The notes under the pieces are model-generated. The model did not search any database. It was not told where the DNA came from and saw only the letters and a program-made list of their open reading frames with translations. 57,614 nucleotides of DNA from an uncultured Burkholderiales bacterium. Lineage in GTDB: Bacteria > Actinomycetota > Acidimicrobiia > IMCC26256 > JACPCJ01. Shown here piece after piece: positions 147 through 56,375 of the stretch (positions are counted from its first letter, which is position 1; each line of letters begins with the position of its first letter). Position numbers and translations under genes: made by a program. The stretch is taken from positions 1 to 57,614 of the forward strand of contig CAZTOV010000005.1 of the NCBI GenBank assembly GCA_964615175.1, written 5' to 3'.

Positions 147-184
147 GTCAGACGGAACGTGAACGAGGTCGTCCAGCGTATGGG

Positions 185-256
185 GCTCGGACGGCCAGGT
201 GTGGGGCAGGGGCCCCACACTCTGGAGGAGCCGACGAGATGTCGGCGGGACAAGAG
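185..256 (+). repeat. MIRU-like interspersed element, copy A
   Basis: Blocks of 12, 16 and 23 nt identical to 49182-49076 on the minus strand. Confidence 0.8.
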
Positions 257-1636
257 ATGGATTCTTCGGCCCGGGTCGTGGCCGTCGCCCCCGGTTCCCC
301 GGCCGACTCGGCAGGTGTGTCCGTGGGCGACGAACTGCTCGCCATCGATGGCGAGCCGCTTCGCGACGTCATCAAGTACCAGCTCCTCACCGACGAGCCG
401 CGGGTCGACCTCGAGCTGCGCACCGACGGCTTCGAGCGGGTCGTGAGCATCCGCAAGCAGGGGGGTGAGCCACTCGGGCTCGAGTTGGAGTCGGCGGTCT
501 TCGACCGGGTGCAGACGTGCGACAACCACTGCCCCTTCTGCTTCATCTACCAACTCCCCAAGGGCATGCGCCGGTCGCTGTACCTCAAGGACGACGACTT
601 CCGTCTGTCGTTCCTCTACGGCAACTTCACCACGCTGACCCGGTTCACCGAGGCCGACCTCGAACGGGTGGTGGAGGAGCGGCTGGGGCCGCTCTACGTG
701 TCGATTCACGCTACCGACCCCGAGGTCCGGGCCGCGATGTTGCGGAACCGGCGCGGCGCCACGAGCCTGCGGTGGCTGCGCCTCCTCCTCGACCACGGTG
801 TCGAGGTCCACGGCCAGGTGGTGGTCTGCCCTGGGATCAACGACGGCGAAATCCTGGACGACACGATGCTCGGGGTGCTCGACCGGTTTCCCGAGATCAG
901 CACCGTGGGAGTGGTTCCGGTGGGGGTCTCCGACCACAGCAACGAGCCCGACATCCGGCCGCTCACCCCCGATGAGGCCACCCGCACGGTCGAGACGATC
1001 GAGGCCTGGCAGGAGCGTTTCCGCTCCGCGCAGGGTCGCCGTGTCGTGTTCGCCTCCGACGAGCTGTACCTCCTCGCCGGGCGCCGGTTCCCCGATCTCG
1101 ACAGCTACGAAGGCCTCCCGCAGCACGAGAACGGGATCGGGATGGCCCGCGCCCTCGAGCACGACGTGCGTGCCCGCTTGGCGGGGGAGGACGTCGAGGG
1201 TCACGCCCCCGAGGAGGGTTTCTTCGCCTGGGTCGACCGGGCCCGCCCGGACGGGTACCGGGCGCCCGGCGGCGAGCAGCCCGTCCGGATCGGTCCCGGT
1301 CGTGACGCGCCCGTGGGGATCATCACCGGTGAATACGGCGCCCGGGTGCTCGCACCCCTGCTCGACGACCTGTCGCACCACGCGGGCGTTCCGGTACGGA
1401 CGGTTCCCGTGAGCAACCGGTTCTTCGGGGGCAACATCGCGGTGACCGGTCTGCTCAGCGCGGCCGATGTGGCCGCCACCCTCGCCGCCGAGCCGGCCGG
1501 CGACCGGTACCTGCTGCCCGACGTGGTGCTCTCGCGGAACCGGTTCCTCGACGAGGGCGAGGTCCTCGACCTGCCCCATCCCGTCGAAGTCGTCCGCACC
1601 GACGGCGCCTCGCTCGTCGACGCGCTCGCCCGGTAG
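239..1636 (+). CDS. PDZ + DUF512 radical SAM Fe-S protein
   Basis: N-terminal PDZ-like VAPGSPA...GDELLAIDG, CDNHCPFC (CxxxCxxC), LYLKDDDFRLSFLYGN; GGAGG before ATG 239, alternative start 257. Confidence 0.88.
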   Translation: MSAGQEMDSSARVVAVAPGSPADSAGVSVGDELLAIDGEPLRDVIKYQLLTDEPRVDLELRTDGFERVVSIRKQGGEPLGLELESAVFDRVQTCDNHCPFCFIYQLPKGMRRSLYLKDDDFRLSFLYGNFTTLTRFTEADLERVVEERLGPLYVSIHATDPEVRAAMLRNRRGATSLRWLRLLLDHGVEVHGQVVVCPGINDGEILDDTMLGVLDRFPEISTVGVVPVGVSDHSNEPDIRPLTPDEATRTVETIEAWQERFRSAQGRRVVFASDELYLLAGRRFPDLDSYEGLPQHENGIGMARALEHDVRARLAGEDVEGHAPEEGFFAWVDRARPDGYRAPGGEQPVRIGPGRDAPVGIITGEYGARVLAPLLDDLSHHAGVPVRTVPVSNRFFGGNIAVTGLLSAADVAATLAAEPAGDRYLLPDVVLSRNRFLDEGEVLDLPHPVEVVRTDGASLVDALAR

Positions 1637-2977: not shown

Positions 2978-2986
2978 CCCGCCCCT

Positions 2987-3035
2987 GTTCTTGACTGTGG
3001 ATTGCCCGCACAGCGGGCAATCCACAGTCAAGAAC
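2987..3035. repeat. REP-like palindrome, family 1, copy 1 (possible terminator)
   Basis: Perfect 23-bp stem GTTCTTGACTGTGGATTGCCCGC, loop ACA; homologous to 27636-27698. Confidence 0.9.
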
Positions 3036-3064
3036 CAGAACGAAGGCGCCGGTACGCTTGACCC

Positions 3065-27635: not shown

Positions 27636-27698
27636 CCCCCTGGTTCTTGACTGTGTTTTGCCCGCTCAGCGGGCAAAACACAGTCAAGAACCAGGGGG
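27636..27698. repeat. REP-like palindrome, family 1, copy 2
   Basis: Perfect 30-bp stem, loop TCA; compensatory changes relative to 2987-3035. Confidence 0.9.
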
Positions 27699-27746
27699 GA
27701 GGCCGAGACGTCGCATGATCGAATGGGCGCGCTAGCGTCCTCGGCT

Positions 27747-46560: not shown

Positions 46561-47070
46561 CTACACGCAGTCCTTGCAGAGGACTGCCTTCTCGTCGGCG
46601 AGCTGGTTGGGGTGCTTGACGAGGAAGCAGGAACGGCAGGTGAACTCGCCGGGTTGCTTGGCCGGGATCTTCTTCTTGGGAGCCTTCTTGCGCTTCTTCG
46701 GCGTGGGCTCTTCTTCCTCGGCCTCGTCGTCGTCCTCGGACTTCATCTGCTGCTCGAGGATCACGTCGAGTGACTGCTCGACCTCGTCAGGATCCTCTTC
46801 CTCGTCTTCGAGGTCGATGACGGCGCTCTCGTCGTCCGACTCCTCGTCTTCTTCTTCCTCGCTGGTCTCTTTGGTGGCGGTGGTGGAGTCGATGTCGTCG
46901 TCCTCGTCTTCTTCGTCGTCGTCAGGGATGTAGTCCGCGTCGTAGCCGTCCGCGTCGAAATCCTCGTCGAGGTCCTCCTCGTCGAGGTCTTCGTCTTCTT
47001 CTTTGTCGTCGTCGAGGTCCTCGTCGTCGAGGTCCTCCGCCTCGAGGGCGTCGTCGTCGGCAGCGCTCAT
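46561..47070 (-). CDS. DUF4193 family protein with long acidic N-terminus
   Basis: KQPGEFTCRSCFLVKHPNQL...CKDC. Confidence 0.85.
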   Translation of the reverse strand: MSAADDDALEAEDLDDEDLDDDKEEDEDLDEEDLDEDFDADGYDADYIPDDDEEDEDDDIDSTTATKETSEEEEDEESDDESAVIDLEDEEEDPDEVEQSLDVILEQQMKSEDDDEAEEEEPTPKKRKKAPKKKIPAKQPGEFTCRSCFLVKHPNQLADEKAVLCKDCV

Positions 47071-47852: not shown

Positions 47853-49067
47853 TCAAGACAGGCGGCGGGGGCGGATGAGGGCCACCAGTCCTGCGAGCAC
47901 CAGGAGACCGAGGCCCCCCGAGGCGGCCAGCATGCCGCCCGTCGCCGGGGTCGGCCCCGTGCTCGGGGCGTCGGGCTCTTCCGCCCCCGGTTCCGACGTG
48001 CTGGCGAATTCGACGTCGCAGGCCGAGATCTCGGGTTGGGGCGGCGGCGTCTCCTTGTTCGGGTTGAAGTCCTCGGCCTCGTTCTCCGCGCTGTCGGTGA
48101 TGTCGACCCGCACCCACTGGTGCACGCGGCTGTCGGGGCCCTTCTCGAAGTCGAGGACGGTCTGGAGTCGCTCGGTGGCGACGGGGAAATCGGTCAACAG
48201 CGTCTCGAGGTCCTCCAGGTCGGCGTCGGTGGTGCTCACGTCGAGCACGTCGTCGACGGCGTTGAACACGCACACCAGGCTGTCACGGTGATCGCGGACC
48301 ACGGGAACCAGGTCCGCGAAGACCTCGGCGCCGTCGTCGAGGAGGGGCCCGATGTCGTCGGACGCCTTACCGAGGCTCTGGGACACGGCCCGCAGATCCT
48401 CCAGCGCCGCCACCAACGAGTCGGAGTGCTCGGCGAAGACCCGGGTGAGGCGGGTGTTGGCGGACGCCAACCGGTCGAGGGTGTCGGTGCGCTCGGCGAA
48501 CGTCTGCGACAGGCGGTCGCCCTCCACGATCAGGCTCCGCAGGTCGTCCTCCCGGTTCTGCAGACCCACGGCCAGTTCGCGGGTGATGATGCCCAAGTCC
48601 TGGGGGTCGATCGACTCGAGGAGCGCCTCGGCCGAGCGCAACGTGTCGGCGAACTCGATCGGAATCGTGGTCCGCTCGATGGGGATGTGGTCGCCTCCCT
48701 CGAGCACGGGGCCGTCAGGCTTCACCTTCTCGGGGTTCTGGAAGTCGACGAACTGCTCGCCCAGCGCGCTCTTGCGGAAGATGTGAGCGGTGGCGTCGGC
48801 GGGGATGCGGACATCGTTGTCGAGCTTCATCGTGATGCGAACCGCGCCTTCGGCGCGCTCGACGCTCGCGACTCCACCCGCCTGGGTGCCGAGATACGTG
48901 ACCTCGGCGTTGGGGAGGACGCCCATGGCGTTCTCGAAGTCGGCGGTCACCTCGTAGGGGTTTTCGATGAAGTCGACGGTCACCAGGTTCGTGGCCGCCC
49001 AGACCACGAAGGCGATCGCCACGGCGGCGAAGACGGCCAGGTTCACGACGACGCGTCGGCGCAACAT
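47853..49067 (-). CDS. MCE family protein (MceF position)
   Basis: N-terminal TM, GVLPNAEVTYLG, SALGEQFVDF; C-terminal TPATG-TM-RR. Confidence 0.9.
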   Translation of the reverse strand: MLRRRVVVNLAVFAAVAIAFVVWAATNLVTVDFIENPYEVTADFENAMGVLPNAEVTYLGTQAGGVASVERAEGAVRITMKLDNDVRIPADATAHIFRKSALGEQFVDFQNPEKVKPDGPVLEGGDHIPIERTTIPIEFADTLRSAEALLESIDPQDLGIITRELAVGLQNREDDLRSLIVEGDRLSQTFAERTDTLDRLASANTRLTRVFAEHSDSLVAALEDLRAVSQSLGKASDDIGPLLDDGAEVFADLVPVVRDHRDSLVCVFNAVDDVLDVSTTDADLEDLETLLTDFPVATERLQTVLDFEKGPDSRVHQWVRVDITDSAENEAEDFNPNKETPPPQPEISACDVEFASTSEPGAEEPDAPSTGPTPATGGMLAASGGLGLLVLAGLVALIRPRRLS

Positions 49068-49068
49068 G

Positions 49069-49215
49069 CTATTGACCCGCCGACATCTCGTCGGCTCCGA
49101 CAACATCCGGGGTCCCCGTCGGAACCTCTGGTTCCGGCGGGGGTTGTGGCGGGGCCCCTGCCCCACCAGCGGCCGTCCGAGCAGCGTTTCGCGTCATCGT
49201 TCGGTCTTCATCCAT
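49069..49215 (-). repeat. MIRU-like element, copy B, with a 48-aa linker ORF
   Basis: TGATG overlap with the mceE stop; reads MDEDRTMTRNAARTAAGGAGAP...GADEMSAGQ; TAG 1 nt before the mceF ATG. Confidence 0.8.
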
Positions 49216-50171
49216 CAGTCGCCTTCACTCCCCCGCAACACGCCGTGCTGGAACACGGTGGTGAAATCGTTGGGGATCACGTCGGGGATGGTGACGACGA
49301 ACCGCTTCAACCACACCAGGAGGGAGTCGATGTCGTCCTGACGGTCGGCGAGTTGGGCGAGGATGTCGTCGACCTGGTTGATCTGCGTGTTCACCTCGTC
49401 GAAGTGCTCGACCACGACGGTGTTCTGGGCCGTCGCCAGGCGTGAGAGTTGCTCGAGGGCCTCGACCGCCCGGTCACGGTTCTCGGCCAGCAGGCCCGTG
49501 GTCTCGGCGAGATGACCGAGGGCATCGCGGAGACTGCCCGTGCCCGAGGCCAGTTGGCCGGCCGCCCCGTCGAGGTGGTCGATGATCCGCACGAGTTGGT
49601 CGGAGCGTTCGGCGAGGGTCCCGCTGATCGTCCCGAGGCTGTTCACGAGCGAACGGAACTCTTCGCGCTGGCCTCCGAAGCCGATGCCTCCGGCGTCGAT
49701 GAGCGTGGCGAGGTCGCTCGCTTCGACGGCGCCGAGCAGCTCGATGGCGGTATCGGCGACGAATTCCAGCTCGGGTGCGGCCTCGCTGTCCTCGATGGTC
49801 TCTCCGGCGGCCAGGTACGGCCCATCGACCATCGCCTCCTCCGACGGTGGCCGCAACTCGATGAACTTCTCGCCGAGAAGACTGGTGGTGCGTAGGACCG
49901 CGGTCGTGCCCACCGGAACGTCGATACCGTCGCTGATACGCATCGTGACGCGGGCGCGGAAGTCGTCGGTGAGGTCGATGGAGGTGACCTCGCCGACGCG
50001 GACGTCGGCGATCTGGACGGAATGGCGTTCGACGAGGTCGCCGACGTCGTCGAACTCGGCGGCGAGGCGGTAGCCGTCGGCGCTGAGGAACTCGCGCACC
50101 CCGAACCCGCCGGCCATCAGCGCGACGACGCCCACCAGCGCCCAGACGATGCGTGCGACGCGGCCCATCAC
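49215..50171 (-). CDS. MCE family protein (MceE position)
   Basis: DLVERHSVQIADVRVG, TSLLGEKFIEL. Confidence 0.9.
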   Translation of the reverse strand: MMGRVARIVWALVGVVALMAGGFGVREFLSADGYRLAAEFDDVGDLVERHSVQIADVRVGEVTSIDLTDDFRARVTMRISDGIDVPVGTTAVLRTTSLLGEKFIELRPPSEEAMVDGPYLAAGETIEDSEAAPELEFVADTAIELLGAVEASDLATLIDAGGIGFGGQREEFRSLVNSLGTISGTLAERSDQLVRIIDHLDGAAGQLASGTGSLRDALGHLAETTGLLAENRDRAVEALEQLSRLATAQNTVVVEHFDEVNTQINQVDDILAQLADRQDDIDSLLVWLKRFVVTIPDVIPNDFTTVFQHGVLRGSEGD

Positions 50172-51388
50172 ACGACCCCCGTGACCGCTCGGGCGAAGCC
50201 ACCGAACAGGTCGAGGATGTCCGCTGCGAACCCGGGGTCGTCGCCGTTATGCGACCGACGCTCGTAACTGGACGCGACGTCGAGTGGCCCGGCGCCGGTG
50301 TCGGTCAACTCCCGTAGGAGGTCGTCGAGGGGACCGAACGGCGACTCGGGAACCGGCGGTTCGGGATCTTCGTCGTCCCGCCCGTTGTCGGTACCCTCGC
50401 CTTCCGACTGGCTGGGCGCGCCGGACGCGCTCAGGGCCTCGCCGCCGTCGTCCTGCTCGAAGAGCCCGGAGTCGCGGAGGTCGACGACGCGCTTGTCGGT
50501 GTCCACGGCCTCCTTCAGGCCGCTCGCCGTGATCGGCCCGGCCGCCAAGAGCTGGTCGACCGAGTCGATGTTCGCCCGGATGGCCTGGGCCACGTGCTCG
50601 AGCACCTCGAGGTCGTCGCCGAGATCTTCACCGTGCTCGTCGACCAGGTCCTTGGCGTTGGCGGCGAAGGTAGCCAGGTTCGTGACGATGTTGCCGAGGC
50701 GGTCGCGCTCCTCGGCGAGCACGCCCGTCACGACGGCGAAGTCGTCGAGCACCTCGCCGATCTGGTCCTCGCGGGTGAGGAGCGTGCGGGTGAAGTCGTC
50801 GAAGTTGTCGATGATCCGGCCCAGCTCTTCGCTCTTGGCCCCGAAGTCGCGGGTGACGTCGGCGATCTCCCGGATCGTGTCGTTGATCGTCTCGCCCTGA
50901 CCGTCCAGGTCGGAGGCCAAGTTCTCGGTGAGGCGCCGGCTGCCGTCGGGGTTGAGGTCGTCGAGGAAGTCACGGAGGGCGCGGAGGGCTTCGTCGACCT
51001 CGACGGGCACGGTGGTGCGCTCCAGCGGGATCACGGCCCCGTCCTCGAGGCGAGGGCCACCCGTGTAGGCCGGGAAGAGCTGCACGTATCGCTCCCCGAT
51101 GAGCGAAAGGGGGACGATGGTGGCCTGGACATCGGCGGGGACGGGCACATCGTCGTCGACGGTGATCTCCACCCGCACCTGATCGCCGACGACCTCGACA
51201 TCGTCGACCGTCCCGGCCGGAAGCCCCAGCACCCGGACCTCGGACCCCTCGAAGAGGGAGACGGCCCGCTCGAAGAACACCGTGACTCCGGTGCCGCCAC
51301 CCCCGCCCGGGAGCACGGAGCAGCTCCCGGCGACGAGGGTGAGCGCGAACGCCGCCGCGGTGAGCCGGATGCGGGCGCCGCGGGTCAT
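50168..51388 (-). CDS. MCE family protein (MceD position), possible lipoprotein
   Basis: LFEGSEVRVLG, SLIGERYVQLFPAYTGGP, RTTVPVE; N-terminal LVAGSC. Confidence 0.9.
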   Translation of the reverse strand: MTRGARIRLTAAAFALTLVAGSCSVLPGGGGGTGVTVFFERAVSLFEGSEVRVLGLPAGTVDDVEVVGDQVRVEITVDDDVPVPADVQATIVPLSLIGERYVQLFPAYTGGPRLEDGAVIPLERTTVPVEVDEALRALRDFLDDLNPDGSRRLTENLASDLDGQGETINDTIREIADVTRDFGAKSEELGRIIDNFDDFTRTLLTREDQIGEVLDDFAVVTGVLAEERDRLGNIVTNLATFAANAKDLVDEHGEDLGDDLEVLEHVAQAIRANIDSVDQLLAAGPITASGLKEAVDTDKRVVDLRDSGLFEQDDGGEALSASGAPSQSEGEGTDNGRDDEDPEPPVPESPFGPLDDLLRELTDTGAGPLDVASSYERRSHNGDDPGFAADILDLFGGFARAVTGVV

Positions 51389-52365
51389 TGCTGCTCCGAG
51401 GGGTCGCTCGGACTCACGTCGGCGAAGATGTCGGCCCACGGGCCGTGGTTGACCGCCTGGGCCAGGCCCAGCGTCCCGGGGCCGATGTAGGCGAGGGCCC
51501 GGTCGAGGTCCTCCTGGCGCTCATCGAGGATGGTGGCCGTTTCGTGGACCGTGTCGAGGAGGCTGTCGATGACGGCTTCGAACTCGGTGGTGAGCGACGC
51601 CAGCTGGGCGGTGAGGGTCTCGGTGCCCTCGAGTCCGTCGGAGAACGCCTGCCGGCGCTGCTCGAGGACGTCGAGGACGCCCTGCGACTGGTCGAGGAGC
51701 CGCACGAGGACCCGGTCCTTTTCGGCCAGCGTTCCCGAGATCGTCTCGACCCGCTCGAAGAGGCGCTGGAGGTCGTCCTCGCGGTCGTTGACCTCCCCGG
51801 CGACGTCCCGGAGGCCCTCCAACAGGTTCTGGAGATCCTGACGACGGTCCTCGCTCACGGTCGCGAGCTGGTCGACGAAGAGATTGAGTCGTTCGGTGTC
51901 GGTCTCCTGGATGGCCTCGGTGCCGATCCGACTCAGCTCGAACACGTCGAACGGCACGCGGGTCCGCTCGATCGGGATGACCGCGCCGTCCTCGAGGAAG
52001 GGTTCCTGCACGGGACCGCTGAGGCGCACGTACTTGGTGCCGAGAAGCGTCTCGAGCGTCACCTCGGCTTCGGTGTTGGGGCCGAGATCGATACCGGAGT
52101 TGACCGCCAGCTCGAGCGTCACGTTGCCCTCTTCGCGATTGGCCTCGACGCTGGTGACCCGTCCTGCTTTCACGCCTGCGACCCGGACGTCGTCGCCCGA
52201 GGTGATTCCCGCTGAGTCCGCCACCACCGCCGTCACCCGGTACGTGTCTTCGAGCAGGTTCAAGACCCCCACCGCGAAGGCAAGCGCCACCGAACCGGCG
52301 ATCGCTGCCACCGAGATCGCCCCGATCAGGTAGGGGTTGGCGTCGCGGAACGACTTGAGCTCCAT
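51385..52365 (-). CDS. MCE family protein (MceC position)
   Basis: KSFRDANP, GDDVRVAGVKAG, TLLGTKY, RTRVPFD. Confidence 0.9.
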   Translation of the reverse strand: MELKSFRDANPYLIGAISVAAIAGSVALAFAVGVLNLLEDTYRVTAVVADSAGITSGDDVRVAGVKAGRVTSVEANREEGNVTLELAVNSGIDLGPNTEAEVTLETLLGTKYVRLSGPVQEPFLEDGAVIPIERTRVPFDVFELSRIGTEAIQETDTERLNLFVDQLATVSEDRRQDLQNLLEGLRDVAGEVNDREDDLQRLFERVETISGTLAEKDRVLVRLLDQSQGVLDVLEQRRQAFSDGLEGTETLTAQLASLTTEFEAVIDSLLDTVHETATILDERQEDLDRALAYIGPGTLGLAQAVNHGPWADIFADVSPSDPSEQQ

Positions 52366-53468
52366 CAGTCTCCGGCCCCCGGGTCCGCTGCGCCGGTGAC
52401 GGCTCCGAGGATCTCGGCGAGTTCGTTGGGTGGCGTGCGGGCCGCAGCCTCGCCGTCACCGGTGGTCTGGCTCGTGCAGCTGGCGCTGCCGTCGAACGGC
52501 GGAATCGGGCCCTCGGGGCCGTCGACGTCGATCACGCTGCACGGGATCCACTGGTTGAGCCACTCCCCGTAGCGGGAGGCGTTGTAGAGCGCGAGGCTGA
52601 GGTCGTCGAGGTTGACGACGGTCGTCTCGAGTTCGTCGAAACGGTCGTCGACGACGTCGACGACCTCGCCCACGCGGGTCAGGATGCGGTCGATTCCGGG
52701 TCGGTTCTGCGCGAGGAGCTTGCCGAGCGCCTCGGAGAAGCCACCGAGATCGACCACGGTCCGCTCGACGACGTCGGTGTTCTCGTTGAACGTCGCGGCG
52801 AGGTCCGTGACGTTGTCCAGGATGGTTCGTAGCTGCTCGTCACGAGCCACGAGGGCGTCGGTGACCGACGCCAGGTTGCTCACCATCCGACCGATGGCCT
52901 CATCGCGGCTGCCCAAGGCCTCGGCGAACGTGCCCAGATCGGAGATGGTGGCGCCCAACAGCTCGTCGTTTCCCTCTTCGAGGGCGCCCGTGAACGCGAG
53001 AAGGAAGTTGTTGACCTGCTCGGGGTCGATCGACTGCAGCACCGGCCCGAGCCGGTTGAACAACTCGCCCAGGTCGACGATGGGCCGGCTGCGGTCGAGC
53101 GGGATGTGGTCTCCGCCCTCGAGCGTCGTGCCGGCGTCGCCCGGGAAGAGGTAGACGTATCGCTGGCCCAGCAGGTTGCGCCACCGGACGGCGGTCTCGG
53201 TGTCGCTCGGGAGGTCGACCGAGTCGTCGACCTCGAAGTCGACGACAGCCTTGCCGTCCTCGACGCCGATGCCGGTGACCTTGCCCACCACGACGCCTGC
53301 GACCTTGACGTTGTCGTTCTCGAGCAGGCCGGTGACGTCGTCGAACGTCGCCGAGAGGGAGTAGCGGTCGGCGAAGGGGTCGATGTTGCCGATGGTGAAG
53401 GCCAGCCAGGCCGTGAAGGCCAGACAGACCGCGGTGAAGCCCACCAGCTTGAGGGCGAGCCGGATCAT
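52365..53468 (-). CDS. MCE family protein (MceB position)
   Basis: FDDVTGL..DNVKVAGV, RWRNLLGQRY, YGEWLN..PC. Confidence 0.9.
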   Translation of the reverse strand: MIRLALKLVGFTAVCLAFTAWLAFTIGNIDPFADRYSLSATFDDVTGLLENDNVKVAGVVVGKVTGIGVEDGKAVVDFEVDDSVDLPSDTETAVRWRNLLGQRYVYLFPGDAGTTLEGGDHIPLDRSRPIVDLGELFNRLGPVLQSIDPEQVNNFLLAFTGALEEGNDELLGATISDLGTFAEALGSRDEAIGRMVSNLASVTDALVARDEQLRTILDNVTDLAATFNENTDVVERTVVDLGGFSEALGKLLAQNRPGIDRILTRVGEVVDVVDDRFDELETTVVNLDDLSLALYNASRYGEWLNQWIPCSVIDVDGPEGPIPPFDGSASCTSQTTGDGEAAARTPPNELAEILGAVTGAADPGAGD

Positions 53469-54682
53469 GGTGTTCCCAACCCCGCGAACGCGTGCGCGGG
53501 CATGCCGAAGACCACCTGGCTCAGGACGTCGACGACCGCCGTAGACCCCTCGGTTGCCGATCTGCCGCTTGGCGCCGCTTCGCTCGTCGATTCCGTCGAT
53601 GCCACTCCCCCGGCGCCGAGGTCGACGCCGGGGAGAGCCCGGCCGAGCGTGCAGGCTTCACTCGTCTCGGAGAGGGCGCAGGCCAGGTTGACCAGGGTGG
53701 CCTGGTCGAGCACGAACTTGATGGTCCCGGCAATGGCTCCGTTGTCGTGCTGCAGGAAGTTGCCTTCGTAGACGCCTGCCTGGGCGAGGATCTTCGCGAA
53801 GTCACGAAGCGCCACCACGAGCTTCGGCACCTGCTCACGGTTGTCATGCAGCACCTGAATGGTCTTCCCACCCTCGGTCACCATCTTTTCGAGCGTGGGT
53901 TGGACCTCTTCGAGCACCTCCGCGAGGTGTCGCGACACGTCCGCGGCGTCGTCGAGGAGATCGGCGAGCTTGTCGCCGCGCTCGTTGAGGGGCGGAAGCG
54001 CCTCGTTGAGGCTCCGGGTGGTCGCCACGATGTCGTCGCCCACCCGGTCGAACGCGCCGGAGAGCGTCTCGAAGTCGTCGAGGAACTGGCGGGTATCGGC
54101 GTCGTGCTTCGCGAACACGGCCGCCACCTCCGACCAGTTCTGGATCTGCCGCCGGATGCGCTCACCCTGGCCGTCTACGGCACCGGCGAGGGTGTCGAGG
54201 ATCACGGCGAGGTCGGCGGGGCGCACCGAATCGAGCAGCTCTTCAGCGGTCACGAGCACACGCTCCAGCTCGATGCTCCCGACGGTGCTCTCGATCTCGT
54301 CGCCGTCCTCGAGCACCGGTTCCCCGGCGGATGTGTCGGGAACCTCGATGTCGACGAACTTCTCGCCGAAGAGTGTCTTGGGTCGCACGAGGGCTCGGGA
54401 GCCGACCGGGATCTTCTCGTAGCCGCGGATCTGCAACGTCACCAGAGCCCGTCCCGCGTCGTCGAGTTCGACGGACTCGACCTCGCCGACGTTCACGCCG
54501 CGGATCTTCACGTCGGAGTCCTTGATCAGACCCTGGCCGGCATTCCCGAATCGGGCGCTCACTTCGTAGACGTCGTCGAACGTGCCCGAGGCGTAGAGGA
54601 CGGCGACCACGGTCGATCCGGTGAGGAAGATCGACACCACGAGGCCGGTGAGGATGAGGAACGAGCGCTCGGACGGTCGCAT
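53465..54682 (-). CDS. MCE family protein (MceA position)
   Basis: AGQGL...SDVKIRGV, TLFGEKFVDI. Confidence 0.9.
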   Translation of the reverse strand: MRPSERSFLILTGLVVSIFLTGSTVVAVLYASGTFDDVYEVSARFGNAGQGLIKDSDVKIRGVNVGEVESVELDDAGRALVTLQIRGYEKIPVGSRALVRPKTLFGEKFVDIEVPDTSAGEPVLEDGDEIESTVGSIELERVLVTAEELLDSVRPADLAVILDTLAGAVDGQGERIRRQIQNWSEVAAVFAKHDADTRQFLDDFETLSGAFDRVGDDIVATTRSLNEALPPLNERGDKLADLLDDAADVSRHLAEVLEEVQPTLEKMVTEGGKTIQVLHDNREQVPKLVVALRDFAKILAQAGVYEGNFLQHDNGAIAGTIKFVLDQATLVNLACALSETSEACTLGRALPGVDLGAGGVASTESTSEAAPSGRSATEGSTAVVDVLSQVVFGMPAHAFAGLGTP

Positions 54683-54684
54683 GC

Positions 54685-55533
54685 CTATCCGGCGATCCTC
54701 ACCGTGTTGCCGCCTCCCCACATCACCAGCGAGAGGACGAGATTCAGGATCACGACGGTGACGATCGAGAGCCGGATGGCTCGGCCGACCGCCACGCCCA
54801 CGCCGGCGGGACCGCCGGTGGCGTGGTAGCCGTAGTAGCAGTGGATGAGGGCCACGGCGACGGCGAAGACCATGGCCTTGATGAGCGAGTAGACGATGTC
54901 GATCACCGGTAAGAACAGTTTGAAATAGTGGTCGTAGACGCCTTGGGACAGCCCGAAGTACTGCGTGGTGATCAGCTCGGTGGCGAAGAACGACGCGAAC
55001 AGGGCGATGAGATAGAGCGGGACGATGGTGATGAGGGCGGCGACGACGCGGGTGGCGACGAGATAGACGAGCGTCGGGACGCTCATGACTTCGAGAGCGT
55101 CGATCTCGTCGGAGATGCGCATCGCCCCCAGCTCGGCGGTGAACCCGGCGCCGACCTGGGCGGCGAGGGCGATCCCGGCGATGAGCGGTGTGACCTCTCG
55201 GGTGTTGGCCCACGACGACACCAGGCCCGTGAATGCCTGAGCCCCGAGCTGCTCGAGGCCCTTGAAGCCCTGGAGACCCACCTCGGTGCCGGTGAAGAAC
55301 GCCATCGAGAAGATCACGACGATCATCCCGCCCCCGATGACGAACGCGCCCACGCCGATCGTGATGTCGCTCACGAGGGCGAACACCACGCTGAAGTACC
55401 GCAGCCGGGTGAAGAGCTGGGTCGGAATGGCCCAGAGGACCTTCAGGTAGAAGCGGAGCTGGCGGCCCACCTCCTCGAAGGCGTCGCCGAGGCGGTGCGC
55501 CGCAGTGACGACGGGTGAGAGCGGGGAGGCCAT
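54685..55533 (-). CDS. MlaE/YrbEB-type ABC permease
   Basis: AQVGAGFTAELGAMRISDEIDALEVM, IHCYYGY.A.GGPAGVG. Confidence 0.93.
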   Translation of the reverse strand: MASPLSPVVTAAHRLGDAFEEVGRQLRFYLKVLWAIPTQLFTRLRYFSVVFALVSDITIGVGAFVIGGGMIVVIFSMAFFTGTEVGLQGFKGLEQLGAQAFTGLVSSWANTREVTPLIAGIALAAQVGAGFTAELGAMRISDEIDALEVMSVPTLVYLVATRVVAALITIVPLYLIALFASFFATELITTQYFGLSQGVYDHYFKLFLPVIDIVYSLIKAMVFAVAVALIHCYYGYHATGGPAGVGVAVGRAIRLSIVTVVILNLVLSLVMWGGGNTVRIAG

Positions 55534-55600
55534 CTACTGATCCGCCGACATCCCACCGGTGACCGGAAGAGCAGCGCTGCGCGTCATCGTCCGCTCCTCA
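55534..55600 (-). repeat. MIRU-like element, copy C, with a 17-aa ORF
   Basis: GAGGAG RBS, ATG 55587, MTRSAALPVTGGMSADQ, TAG directly before the yrbEB ATG; 20/22 and 17/19 nt identity to copy B ends. Confidence 0.78.
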
Positions 55601-55604
55601 TCGG

Positions 55605-56375
55605 TCAGAACTTCTGGGGGACGAGGGCGAAGTAGAGGAGGCTCATCACCGAGTTGGCGATGAAGATGAGCACGAAGGTCAGGACCACCGCCTGGTTGAC
55701 GGCGTCCCCGACTCCCTTGGGGCCGCCCTTGGCGTAGAGACCCATGTAGGAGGCGACCATGGCGGCGATGAACCCGAACACGAACGCCTTGGCCAACGAC
55801 GACCACAGGTCGGCGAGCTGGACGAGCTGGCTGAAGCCCGAGAAGTAGGCGCCGGCGGTCACGTCCTGCACCACCACGTTGAAGAAGAAGCCGCCGGCGA
55901 TGCCCGCGACCGAGACCAGCGAGACGAGCAGGATCCCGATGGTGGCGGCGGCCCAGAGTCGGGCGGTGACCAGACGGTGGATGGGGTTCACCGCCATCAC
56001 CTCGAGGGCCGAGATCTCGTCACGAATCTTGCGTGATCCGAGGTCGGCGGTCATCGCCGAACCGCCGGCACCGGAGATGAGCAGCGCCGTCGCCACCGGA
56101 GCCGCCTCGCGGACGATGGCGAGGACCATGGCAGCGCCGGTACCGGACTCGGCGCCGAGCTGGCGGGCGAAGCTCCCCACGTGCAGGGCGATGACCATGC
56201 CGAAGGGGATCGACACGAGAATGACCGGCAGCGTGGTGACCTTGGCGATGAACCACGACTGATCGAGGTACTCGCGCCACCAGAGATGGACCCGGGGCGT
56301 CGCCCGGATCCCTTCGAGGGCAATGGCGAACATGTTGCCGGTCTCGCGGACGACGGTGCCGACCTTGTTGTTCAC
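55605..56375 (-). CDS. MlaE/YrbEA-type ABC permease
   Basis: GAGGSAMTADLGSRKIRDEI.ALEVM, KGGPKGVGDAVN. Confidence 0.93.
   Translation of the reverse strand: MNNKVGTVVRETGNMFAIALEGIRATPRVHLWWREYLDQSWFIAKVTTLPVILVSIPFGMVIALHVGSFARQLGAESGTGAAMVLAIVREAAPVATALLISGAGGSAMTADLGSRKIRDEISALEVMAVNPIHRLVTARLWAAATIGILLVSLVSVAGIAGGFFFNVVVQDVTAGAYFSGFSQLVQLADLWSSLAKAFVFGFIAAMVASYMGLYAKGGPKGVGDAVNQAVVLTFVLIFIANSVMSLLYFALVPQKF

Follow-up and report, generated by a model that had tools for sequence, protein, structure and literature searches.

A modular hairpin repeat at gene starts and at two Mce operon junctions in the genome of an uncultured actinobacterium

The first 57,614 nucleotides of contig CAZTOV010000005.1 (assembly GCA_964615175.1), the whole stretch of DNA analysed here and hereafter called the window, carry on the minus strand an Mce operon made up of yrbEA, yrbEB and six mce genes (Pfam MlaE; MlaD + Mce4_CUP1). 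Only two junctions within this operon are wide, yrbEA-yrbEB and mceE-mceF, and both hold a copy of a short, hairpin-bearing repeat. An initial annotation of the window had proposed an unrecognised family of modular elements that inserts at gene junctions and encodes linker peptides. We find that the repeat belongs to a dispersed family of some tens of copies in this genome, most of which point in the direction of the following gene and end a few nucleotides before its start codon. It is probably a lineage-restricted, non-autonomous mosaic repeat that was inserted repeatedly at gene starts and is tolerated there by supplying a means of restarting translation.

The source genome (G000; 3.23 Mb in 461 contigs, 69% GC, 77% complete) was compared with four genomes from other genera of the same family (G001 to G004), the completeness of the five family genomes ranging from 68 to 95%. 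A covariance model of 37 short-form copies gave 62 matches in the source genome at E <= 0.01, and a scan with the 20-mer of its second hairpin (M3), allowing up to two mismatches, returned 71 matches against none for the reversed pattern that served as control; one of these, on contig C161, is evidently false, leaving 70 true copies. The tip of the first hairpin was matched 55 times (4 in the control) and the hairpin of an optional module (M2) 14 times (0 in the control). A full element consists, in order, of an ACGGCC box, hairpin 1, an optional 42-nucleotide (nt) module containing M2, a GGAGGA box, hairpin 2, GGG and a tail of 7-8 nt, such that long and short forms differ by exactly 42 nt. 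Among the 71 M3 matches, hairpins 1 and 2 occur together in 42, two being second units of tandem arrays, while M2 is also present (the long form) in eight and one more is cut at a contig end. Hairpin 2 stands alone in 20, many of which were seen on inspection to keep remnants of ACGGCC on their left and are therefore read as internal deletions. A further 5' module with its own ATG (M0) is confined to five copies, namely copies A and B of the window and those on contigs C36, C384 and C454.

Single copies predominate in the family and tandem arrays also occur, for example long, short and hairpin-2-only units at about 92440-92700 of contig C2, a short and a hairpin-2-only unit at about 4390-4500 of C43, and two full short units at 3485-3620 of contig C52 of G002, with further tandem units on C15 and C32. 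The tandem unit of hairpin 2 has a period of 32 nt, and such arrays may behave like variable number tandem repeats. In 33 copies aligned in exact register, the identity between copies is 0.96-0.98 for ACGGCC, the hairpin-1 tip, GGAGGA and M3, 0.50-0.51 for the variable stem arms, 0.39 for the tail and 0.28-0.33 for the flanks. We also considered a general left module of about 30 nt homologous to M0 and rejected it, since identity to the left of ACGGCC (0.29-0.33) is close to background (0.28-0.30) and the local alignment pairs scoring >= 20 number 13 against 14 for control flanks, of 820. The two ends of the element (ACGGCC... and ...GGCGGG plus tail) are mutually non-complementary, and by inspection, with no formal test, longer end-to-end matches in the copies are no commoner than expected.

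Both hairpins are maintained by compensatory change. The alignment of 37 copies has 97.9% of its cells paired, a share that drops to 37-56% once the 3' partners are displaced by one to three columns. Hairpin 1 contains six consecutive covarying pairs, with 81 two-sided cell changes against 24.8 +/- 4.4 after shuffling (0/500), and its tip GGGGC-AGGG-GCCCC is invariant while the inner stem varies freely yet stays paired. In hairpin 2 one pair switches from CG to GC in four copies, and in M2, across nine long forms, 98.3% of cells are paired with four covarying pairs; the three hairpins named in the initial annotation are therefore real. Minimum-energy folds recover hairpin 1 in 7/8 leaders and hairpin 2 in 4/7, the fold z-scores lying between -1.8 and -4.5 in 7/8 folds, with copy B as the exception, and leaving the tail that resembles a Shine-Dalgarno (SD) sequence unpaired in three of the five leaders of that type. 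At Rfam gathering thresholds the window yields a tRNA only, and around copies A and C the best match has E = 1.7. The reading of the copies as an unrecognised, modular, dispersed family is supported.

The copies are strongly tied to the genes that follow them. The next downstream gene lies on the same strand for 60 of the 71 matches and on the opposite strand for six (three in a tRNA cluster, one the false match), while five matches reach contig ends, so that 60/66 are co-oriented (binomial p = 3e-12). Where a downstream open reading frame (ORF) could be called, its start codon follows the GGG by 7 nt in 24 copies and by 8 nt in 16, giving 40/58, and two further copies were mis-scored at -1. 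A genome-wide scan had been expected by the initial annotation to bring up more copies co-oriented with genes and ending at their starts, as these counts show. The start-codon calls are supported by the many Pfam matches of the downstream proteins that begin at profile positions 1-3. These proteins, 52 of which were scanned and 45 of which fall in a Pfam family, have unrelated functions and include the products of ilvC, hisB, hisI, argR, folB, nadE and leuS, ornithine transcarbamylase (OTCase), ribosomal protein L31, DivIVA, the proteasomal ATPase, thiolases and enoyl-CoA hydratases.

Although the first copies were noticed within an operon, the majority are plain 5' leaders and not operon junctions. 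Two tRNA spacers, Thr-Met and, on the minus strand, Glu-Asp, are filled entirely by copies that end 9-10 nt short of where the mature downstream tRNA begins. A short copy close to the consensus (87 bits) is placed in frame within atpG, where it adds about 26 residues (...RGTDTAGAGAGAPASGGADEMSAGRK...) at a loop that is variable among relatives, and the 322-residue protein still matches PF00231 end to end; this is the only intragenic copy of about 70. On contigs C44 and C91 the upstream gene runs through hairpin 2 and terminates at the stop codon in the tail. Such contexts bear on the idea that the repeats are transcription terminators or attenuators that lack a U-tract and have been repeated by chance. 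The hairpins are indeed stable and GC-rich, and many copies in a second family of the order, described below, follow stop codons. However, no T-run follows the hairpins, and copies lie between -10-like boxes and the starts of essential genes, inside coupled operons and inside a coding sequence, where termination would be harmful, which makes this explanation highly improbable.

Comparison with the sister genera covers six sites, yrbEA/yrbEB, mceE/mceF, hisC/hisB, nadE, a DUF512 gene and the atpG loop. The distance from stop to start at yrbEA/yrbEB is 4 nt in G001 (TGAgcgcATG) and 6 nt in G004 (TGAgtccggATG) against 68 nt in G000. At mceE/mceF, G003 and G004 have TGATG (gacTGATG) and G001 a gap of 10 nt against 148 nt in G000, the sequence reading TGATGctgcgccg in G003 and ...ATGttgcgccg in G000. 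Both Mce junctions are thus empty in sister genera, as had been anticipated. The hisC/hisB junction is an ATGA or TGATG overlap in three relatives and a gap of 4 nt in G003, compared with about 145 nt in G000, and the atpG loop DNA of the relatives has no recognisable element. A -10-like TAnnnT hexamer placed 6 nt before the start codon is the layout of leaderless mRNAs in actinobacterial promoters; exactly this spacing is found before the DUF512 gene and nadE in all six relatives' sequences, whereas in G000 about 100 nt separate the -10-like box from the ATG. Because two to four relatives agree at each site, insertion in the lineage of G000 is the parsimonious reading. One insertion is older, to judge from a gene for a cyclic nucleotide monophosphate-binding protein that is orthologous between G000 and G004 (114/139 residues identical) and has the element behind the same TAGGCT box in both genomes, pointing to an insertion that was retained. 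Another element-bearing pair, of FadD genes that may be orthologous, is identical at 74/104 residues. A pair of acyl-CoA dehydrogenase genes from G000 and G003 was set aside as orthologues, being probably paralogues (62/130 identical).

The window itself holds three copies, as the initial annotation had claimed. Copy A (49065-49215, minus strand) is a long form and extends from an old ATG that overlaps the mceE stop codon (49213-49215) to the new ATG of mceF (49065-49067), a 148-nt insertion relative to the sister genera whose upstream junction again reads gacTGATG. It separates the mceE-like gene (49215-50171, minus strand; Pfam scan) from the mceF-like gene (47853-49067, minus strand; Pfam MlaD + Mce4_CUP1). 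In the order of transcription it comprises the M0 module ACGATGACGCG (49190-49200), whose ATG at 49195-49197 shares its frame with the old ATG, the ACGGCC box with hairpin 1 (49147-49176; tip at 49151-49164), the M2 hairpin CCCCGCCGGAACC-AGA-GGTTCCGACGGGG (49114-49142) within the 42 nt exclusive to long forms, a GGAGGA-like box (here TCGGA) with hairpin 2 (GCCGAC-GAGAT-GTCGGC-GGG, 49076-49101) carrying an ATG at its loop, and a stop-type tail TCAATAGC (49068-49075) whose TAG (49069-49071) is one nucleotide from the mceF ATG. The mini-ORF that runs through the copy has 42 codons from the inner ACGATGACGCG ATG, or 48 from the ATG overlapping the mceE stop. In soil metagenome run X1, copy A is covered by a pile-up of paralogues (depth about 228 against about 19), short-form copies aligning onto the long form.

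Copy B (55531-55601, minus strand) lies between two MlaE permease genes identified by Pfam scan, yrbEA (55605-56375) and yrbEB (54685-55533), both on the minus strand. Its old ATG is at 55599-55601, its M0 ATG at 55585-55587 and its TAG at 55534-55536, directly abutting the yrbEB ATG (55531-55533), and the mini-ORF encodes 17 residues. Copies A and B share ACGATGACGCG.A.CGCTGCTC close to their 5' ends and, at their 3' ends, GATGTCGGCGG.TCA.TAG. The fold of copy B is not significant (z = +0.65) and its structure is lost; soil runs X4 and X8 contain strains about 95% identical in which copy B is about 30 nt longer, so the copy in the window is an internal-deletion derivative. Copy C (183-259, plus strand; 92.6 bits) is a short form with ACGGCC, hairpin 1, GGAGGA, hairpin 2 (230-249) and the tail ACAAGAG, and it is followed by the ATG (257-259) of a PDZ/radical-SAM/DUF512 gene. 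One detail of the initial annotation needs amending. A TAG abutting the next ATG is seen in copy B (TAGATG), but in copy A one base intervenes (TAG-C-ATG). The third copy, which that annotation placed at 185-256, matches copy A in two blocks in a repeat search and lacks both the 5' ATG module and a stop codon.

The five M0 copies show how an element can lie within a coupled junction. In each the upstream stop codon overlaps or abuts the old ATG (TGATG three times, TGAcgATG and TGAccgATG once each), the old ATG shares the frame of the M0 ATG in copy A and those on C384 and C454 or joined to it by an ATGA overlap in copy B and that on C36, and the mini-ORF stops 0-1 nt before the new ATG, leaving the chain of stops and starts unbroken from the upstream gene. 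Across the family the tails fall into two main classes. Where a start codon follows M3 by 3-13 nt (54 copies), an SD-like 4-mer at -14 to -4 is present in 23, typically as GGGAGGAAAC-ATG, and about 21 have a stop codon at -9 to -2, in arrangements that vary from TAGATG and TAG-C-ATG to TGATG, TAATG and ATGA. Such a stop occurs in 19/31 tails without the SD-like motif, for example GGGTCAGTAA-ATG, GGGCCGATAG-ATG and GGGCAGATAA-GTG, against 2/23 tails with it (Fisher p = 8e-5, by our own count). The tail thus supplies either an SD-like sequence or a stop abutting the start, and rarely both.

In 15/70 copies the stop shares the frame of the ATG in the hairpin-2 loop, and this ATG, 9 nt behind GGAGGA, opens an ORF of four to five codons (e.g. 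MSAGQ*). A stop-type copy before an atpG-like gene of G001 keeps the ORF ATG CCG CCG GGT CAG TAA ATG despite a different stem sequence. ORFs beginning at candidate old starts, chosen for a -10-like box or a stop close by, terminate at -8 to +1 of the new start in 11/30 cases against 15/105 for arbitrary frames (p = 0.002), the candidates being loosely defined and non-independent; counted per copy, the chain is present in 9/35. The encoded peptide is not conserved, and the part of it encoded by the stem varies freely provided that pairing holds. Two simpler ideas were dropped. The loop ATG is no universal start, since it shares the frame of the gene start in just 31/58 copies and is missing from several sister-genus copies, and an open frame is in itself uninformative, the consensus being free of stops in each of its three forward frames. 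The coupled mini-ORF arrangement is therefore real, yet it is the mode of a minority, found in both Mce copies, in all five M0 copies and in about two fifths of copies overall. The proposal that the element inserts at gene junctions and preserves coupling fits all five M0 copies and not the family at large, in which 5' leaders prevail and 23/54 tails are SD-like. Nothing in these data speaks for the proposed linker peptides or for a tuning of subunit stoichiometry.

These observations suggest how insertion might be survived. The element would have been inserted repeatedly and exactly at gene starts, and would have expanded in G000. In one mode its purine-rich, SD-like tail would stand at the proper distance from the start codon at its 3' edge. 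In the other, an internal SD sequence (GGAGGA) with the loop ATG, or a longer ORF initiated in M0, would lead ribosomes to a stop that touches the gene start, where they may be handed over by termination-reinitiation; at yrbEA/yrbEB and mceE/mceF this second mode would leave the chain of coupling unbroken. Genes that look leaderless in the relatives would acquire a structured leader from the element.

Outside this genome the family has a restricted distribution and its composition changes. Exact M3 with up to one mismatch occurs 61 times in G000 and 0-1 times in each of 40 relatives, and an exact 23-mer scan of the species-representative collection returned only a contig of G002. With the covariance model, each of the four sister genera yields 2-6 matches against 62 in G000, and 10/15 of those in the sister genera have the start codon of an ORF of >= 60 residues 6-8 nt after the match. 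The genes downstream, recognised by their N-terminal sequences, include sucD, rplK, atpG, gyrB, tuf and fusA, among others; the rplK copy is a tandem pair after nusG, and hairpin 2 in these genera keeps its structure with a changed sequence, its ATG frequently missing. Among 121 genomes sampled from the order, matches are restricted to the family of G000 (4/4 sister genomes) and to one further family, f19 (11/11, a tally that includes the unpublished genome G118; without it 10/10, the highest count being 23 in G053), that is, to 2/23 families. A sample of 151 genomes of the class adds a single genome, G131 of family f31 (98% complete), where two adjacent weak matches (C1:134666-134810; E = 3e-6 each) may be a distant tandem relative. 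As to the affiliation of the host, seven WhiB genes (among 14 control genomes only Corynebacterium scores), an Mpa-type ATPase and the six-gene mce operon identify G000 as actinobacterial, and given the actinobacterial gene content of the family, the title 'uncultured Burkholderiales' of the record for G002, a metagenome-assembled genome (MAG) from a sister genus, is probably a mislabel.

Copies in f19 have ACGGCC and hairpin 1 in common with G000 and a different hairpin 2. Of 25 copies sorted by eye, about 14 have a third small hairpin and no start following, and at least 6 have GGCGGG, a purine tail and a start 7-11 nt later; in 15/25 the start of ACGGCC is no more than 15 nt from the stop codon of an ORF in the same orientation. 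The repeat has undergone independent expansions with other module combinations in that family. Such a position right after stops, in what may be termed the f19 beta subtype, recalls repetitive extragenic palindromic (REP) sequences, which are found chiefly behind genes, commonly in inverted pairs, and rely on a REP-associated tyrosine transposase (RAYT). Further likenesses are the small, GC-rich palindromes with compensatory stem changes, the mosaic of modules as in bacterial interspersed mosaic elements (BIMEs), and the abundant, lineage-specific occurrence. That the repeat is a classical REP or REP-doublet (REPIN) family mobilised by a RAYT (Y1) transposase is nonetheless scarcely credible, since in G000 the copies are single, co-oriented with genes and adjacent to their starts, rather than paired in inversion or at gene 3' ends, and the Y1 transposase domain (PF01797) has no match in the assemblies, 68-95% complete, of G000 and the four relatives (5/5 genomes), while 6/14 control genomes score.

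A more serious rival is that the element is a cis-acting RNA leader selected by the host, in which a trans-acting protein or RNase recognises the hairpin-1 tip and co-regulates, processes or stabilises about 60 mRNAs and some tRNA precursors, mobility being only the way in which the regulon grew. This would fit the 0.97-0.98 identity of the hairpin tip, ACGGCC and GGAGGA beside a covarying inner stem, the layout common to two families, the position before tuf, fusA, gyrB, rplK, atpG and sucD-like genes in relatives with few copies, the insertion retained at the orthologous cyclic nucleotide-binding gene, and the stable folds with the SD tail left unpaired in three of five SD-type leaders. Against it stand the in-frame copy in atpG, the copies in tRNA spacers and the 3'-end subtype in f19, the functional unrelatedness of the downstream genes, the tolerance of degenerate or internally deleted copies such as copy B, a copy number that varies 30-fold between genera, and the lack of an Rfam match. 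Nor is there the excess of G.U over A.C that a helix acting at the RNA level would give; 922/952 cells are Watson-Crick pairs and 11 are G.U against 9 A.C, which leaves no sense-strand RNA signature, although so small a difference does not discriminate. We therefore regard a host-selected leader as unlikely. A host function is compatible with mobility and does not exclude it.

Several points weigh against a mobile repeat inserted at gene starts. The near-identity of the core beside flanks at background level is compatible with a host-selected function too, as is the element shared by two genera at the cyclic nucleotide-binding gene. No clear terminal inverted repeats were seen at the ends of the element, and no target duplication is evident beyond the ATG found at both ends of the M0 copies. 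The lack of a Y1/RAYT match counts here as well, and a reverse transcriptase was likewise not found in the five family genomes, among which assembly G000 is only 77% complete. The contigs of four soil metagenome runs contained neither an empty-site allele nor a bridging contig. At the DUF512 gene and nadE the added DNA extends about 30 nt further to the left than the conserved core, and this extra DNA is not shared between copies. Moreover, gene starts and strands were taken from our own crude codon-usage gene caller, and contig ends fall within many copies, leaving some contexts incomplete. We nevertheless infer mobility as the probable cause of the pattern.

A bolder form of the same idea is possible, if doubtful. 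The element may be a translation-initiation region that is portable, propagates itself and is directed at start codons, both leaderless ones and those at junctions with overlapping stops and starts, as well as the 5' ends of tRNAs. Its SD-led state and its state with an upstream ORF would be interchangeable, a trans-acting factor would recognise the hairpin-1 tip, and the ribosome recruitment of dozens of genes (in relatives including tuf, gyrB and atpG) would have been rewritten, turning leaderless genes into leadered ones.

Other repeats were noted in the same DNA. Palindromes of the form CCTGAC-N4-8-GTCAGG occur 24 times in the genome against 6 in the reversed control, some of them just upstream of -10-like boxes at genes of a lipid-catabolism type (contig C18 at about 20005 and 24390, contig C158, and the window at about 145-165). 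In G003 a TAGAACGTGTTCTA palindrome, which we take to resemble a KstR operator, precedes the FadD-like gene. Both types are probably TetR-type operators, and where they lie upstream of copies the element sits between the operator or promoter and the start codon. A second, unrelated repeat family consists of a near-perfect palindrome with 31-bp arms (...GTTCTTGACTGTG...TTGCCCGC...), found in the window at 2979-3047, just past the end of a der/engA-like ORF (1658-2977), and at 27636-27703; its 13-mer half-site, with up to one mismatch, occurs 123 times over both strands, which corresponds to about 60 palindromes. A repeat search also found degenerate GTCGTC/CTCGTC repeats with register shifts of 12-15 nt at 46828-47056, which on the minus strand would code for an acidic, Asp/Glu-rich stretch of low complexity.

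The sequence family is undescribed, and its behaviour resembles that of known elements. Motif strings of the element were absent from the literature searched, and keyword searches brought up nothing closer among actinobacterial elements than the interspersed repetitive units of mycobacteria (MIRUs). Supply et al. reportedly described MIRUs in 1997 as having no dyad symmetry, while the element here has two or three covarying hairpins (97.6-97.9% of cells paired). A review states that MIRUs 'insert themselves at start codons' and describes a coupled ORF believed to limit harm to expression (PMC12548453). By that account the comparison made in the initial annotation was apt as a functional analogy, since both are short, interspersed actinobacterial repeats found at start codons, co-oriented with genes and sometimes in tandem, and part of the copies here have an internal ORF that stops at the next start, as would suit the same coupling. 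In behaviour, with no comparison of the sequences, the element may thus be said to work like a MIRU. A stop and start placed for such a hand-over, however, occur in only about two fifths of copies, the spacing being 0, +1, -1 or -4 and not always -4. The other main class has an SD-like tail, and one intragenic copy and some tRNA-spacer copies are found. Rickettsia palindromic elements (RPEs) are palindromic repeats that can lie in frame inside protein genes and add a peptide segment (PMC10969869), much as the copy in atpG adds its residues in a variable loop of the ATP synthase gamma subunit, although a single copy out of about 70 lies within a gene here and the encoded peptide is not conserved. 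Synthetic bicistronic designs, as the review on MIRUs outlines them, use a short leader ORF ending at the gene start to deliver ribosomes whatever the local structure (PMC12548453), but these are engineered devices and not natural mobile repeats.

If the preferred reading of a mobile, translation-restoring repeat is correct, the element would represent a second, independent actinobacterial instance of the MIRU strategy, in which a selfish repeat survives by restoring translation at start codons, and it would be structurally richer and easier to dissect than the MIRU. Its consequences are also practical, in that the family breaks soil MAG assemblies, many contigs ending within copies, and misleads start-codon calling where the loop ATG and the true start share a reading frame. 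The two tail classes offer a natural experiment on SD-led initiation against termination-reinitiation, while a hairpin-1 tip that is invariant across two families points to a putative recognition factor. Finally, the leaderless-looking orthologues in the relatives suggest a route by which leaderless genes may gain leaders.

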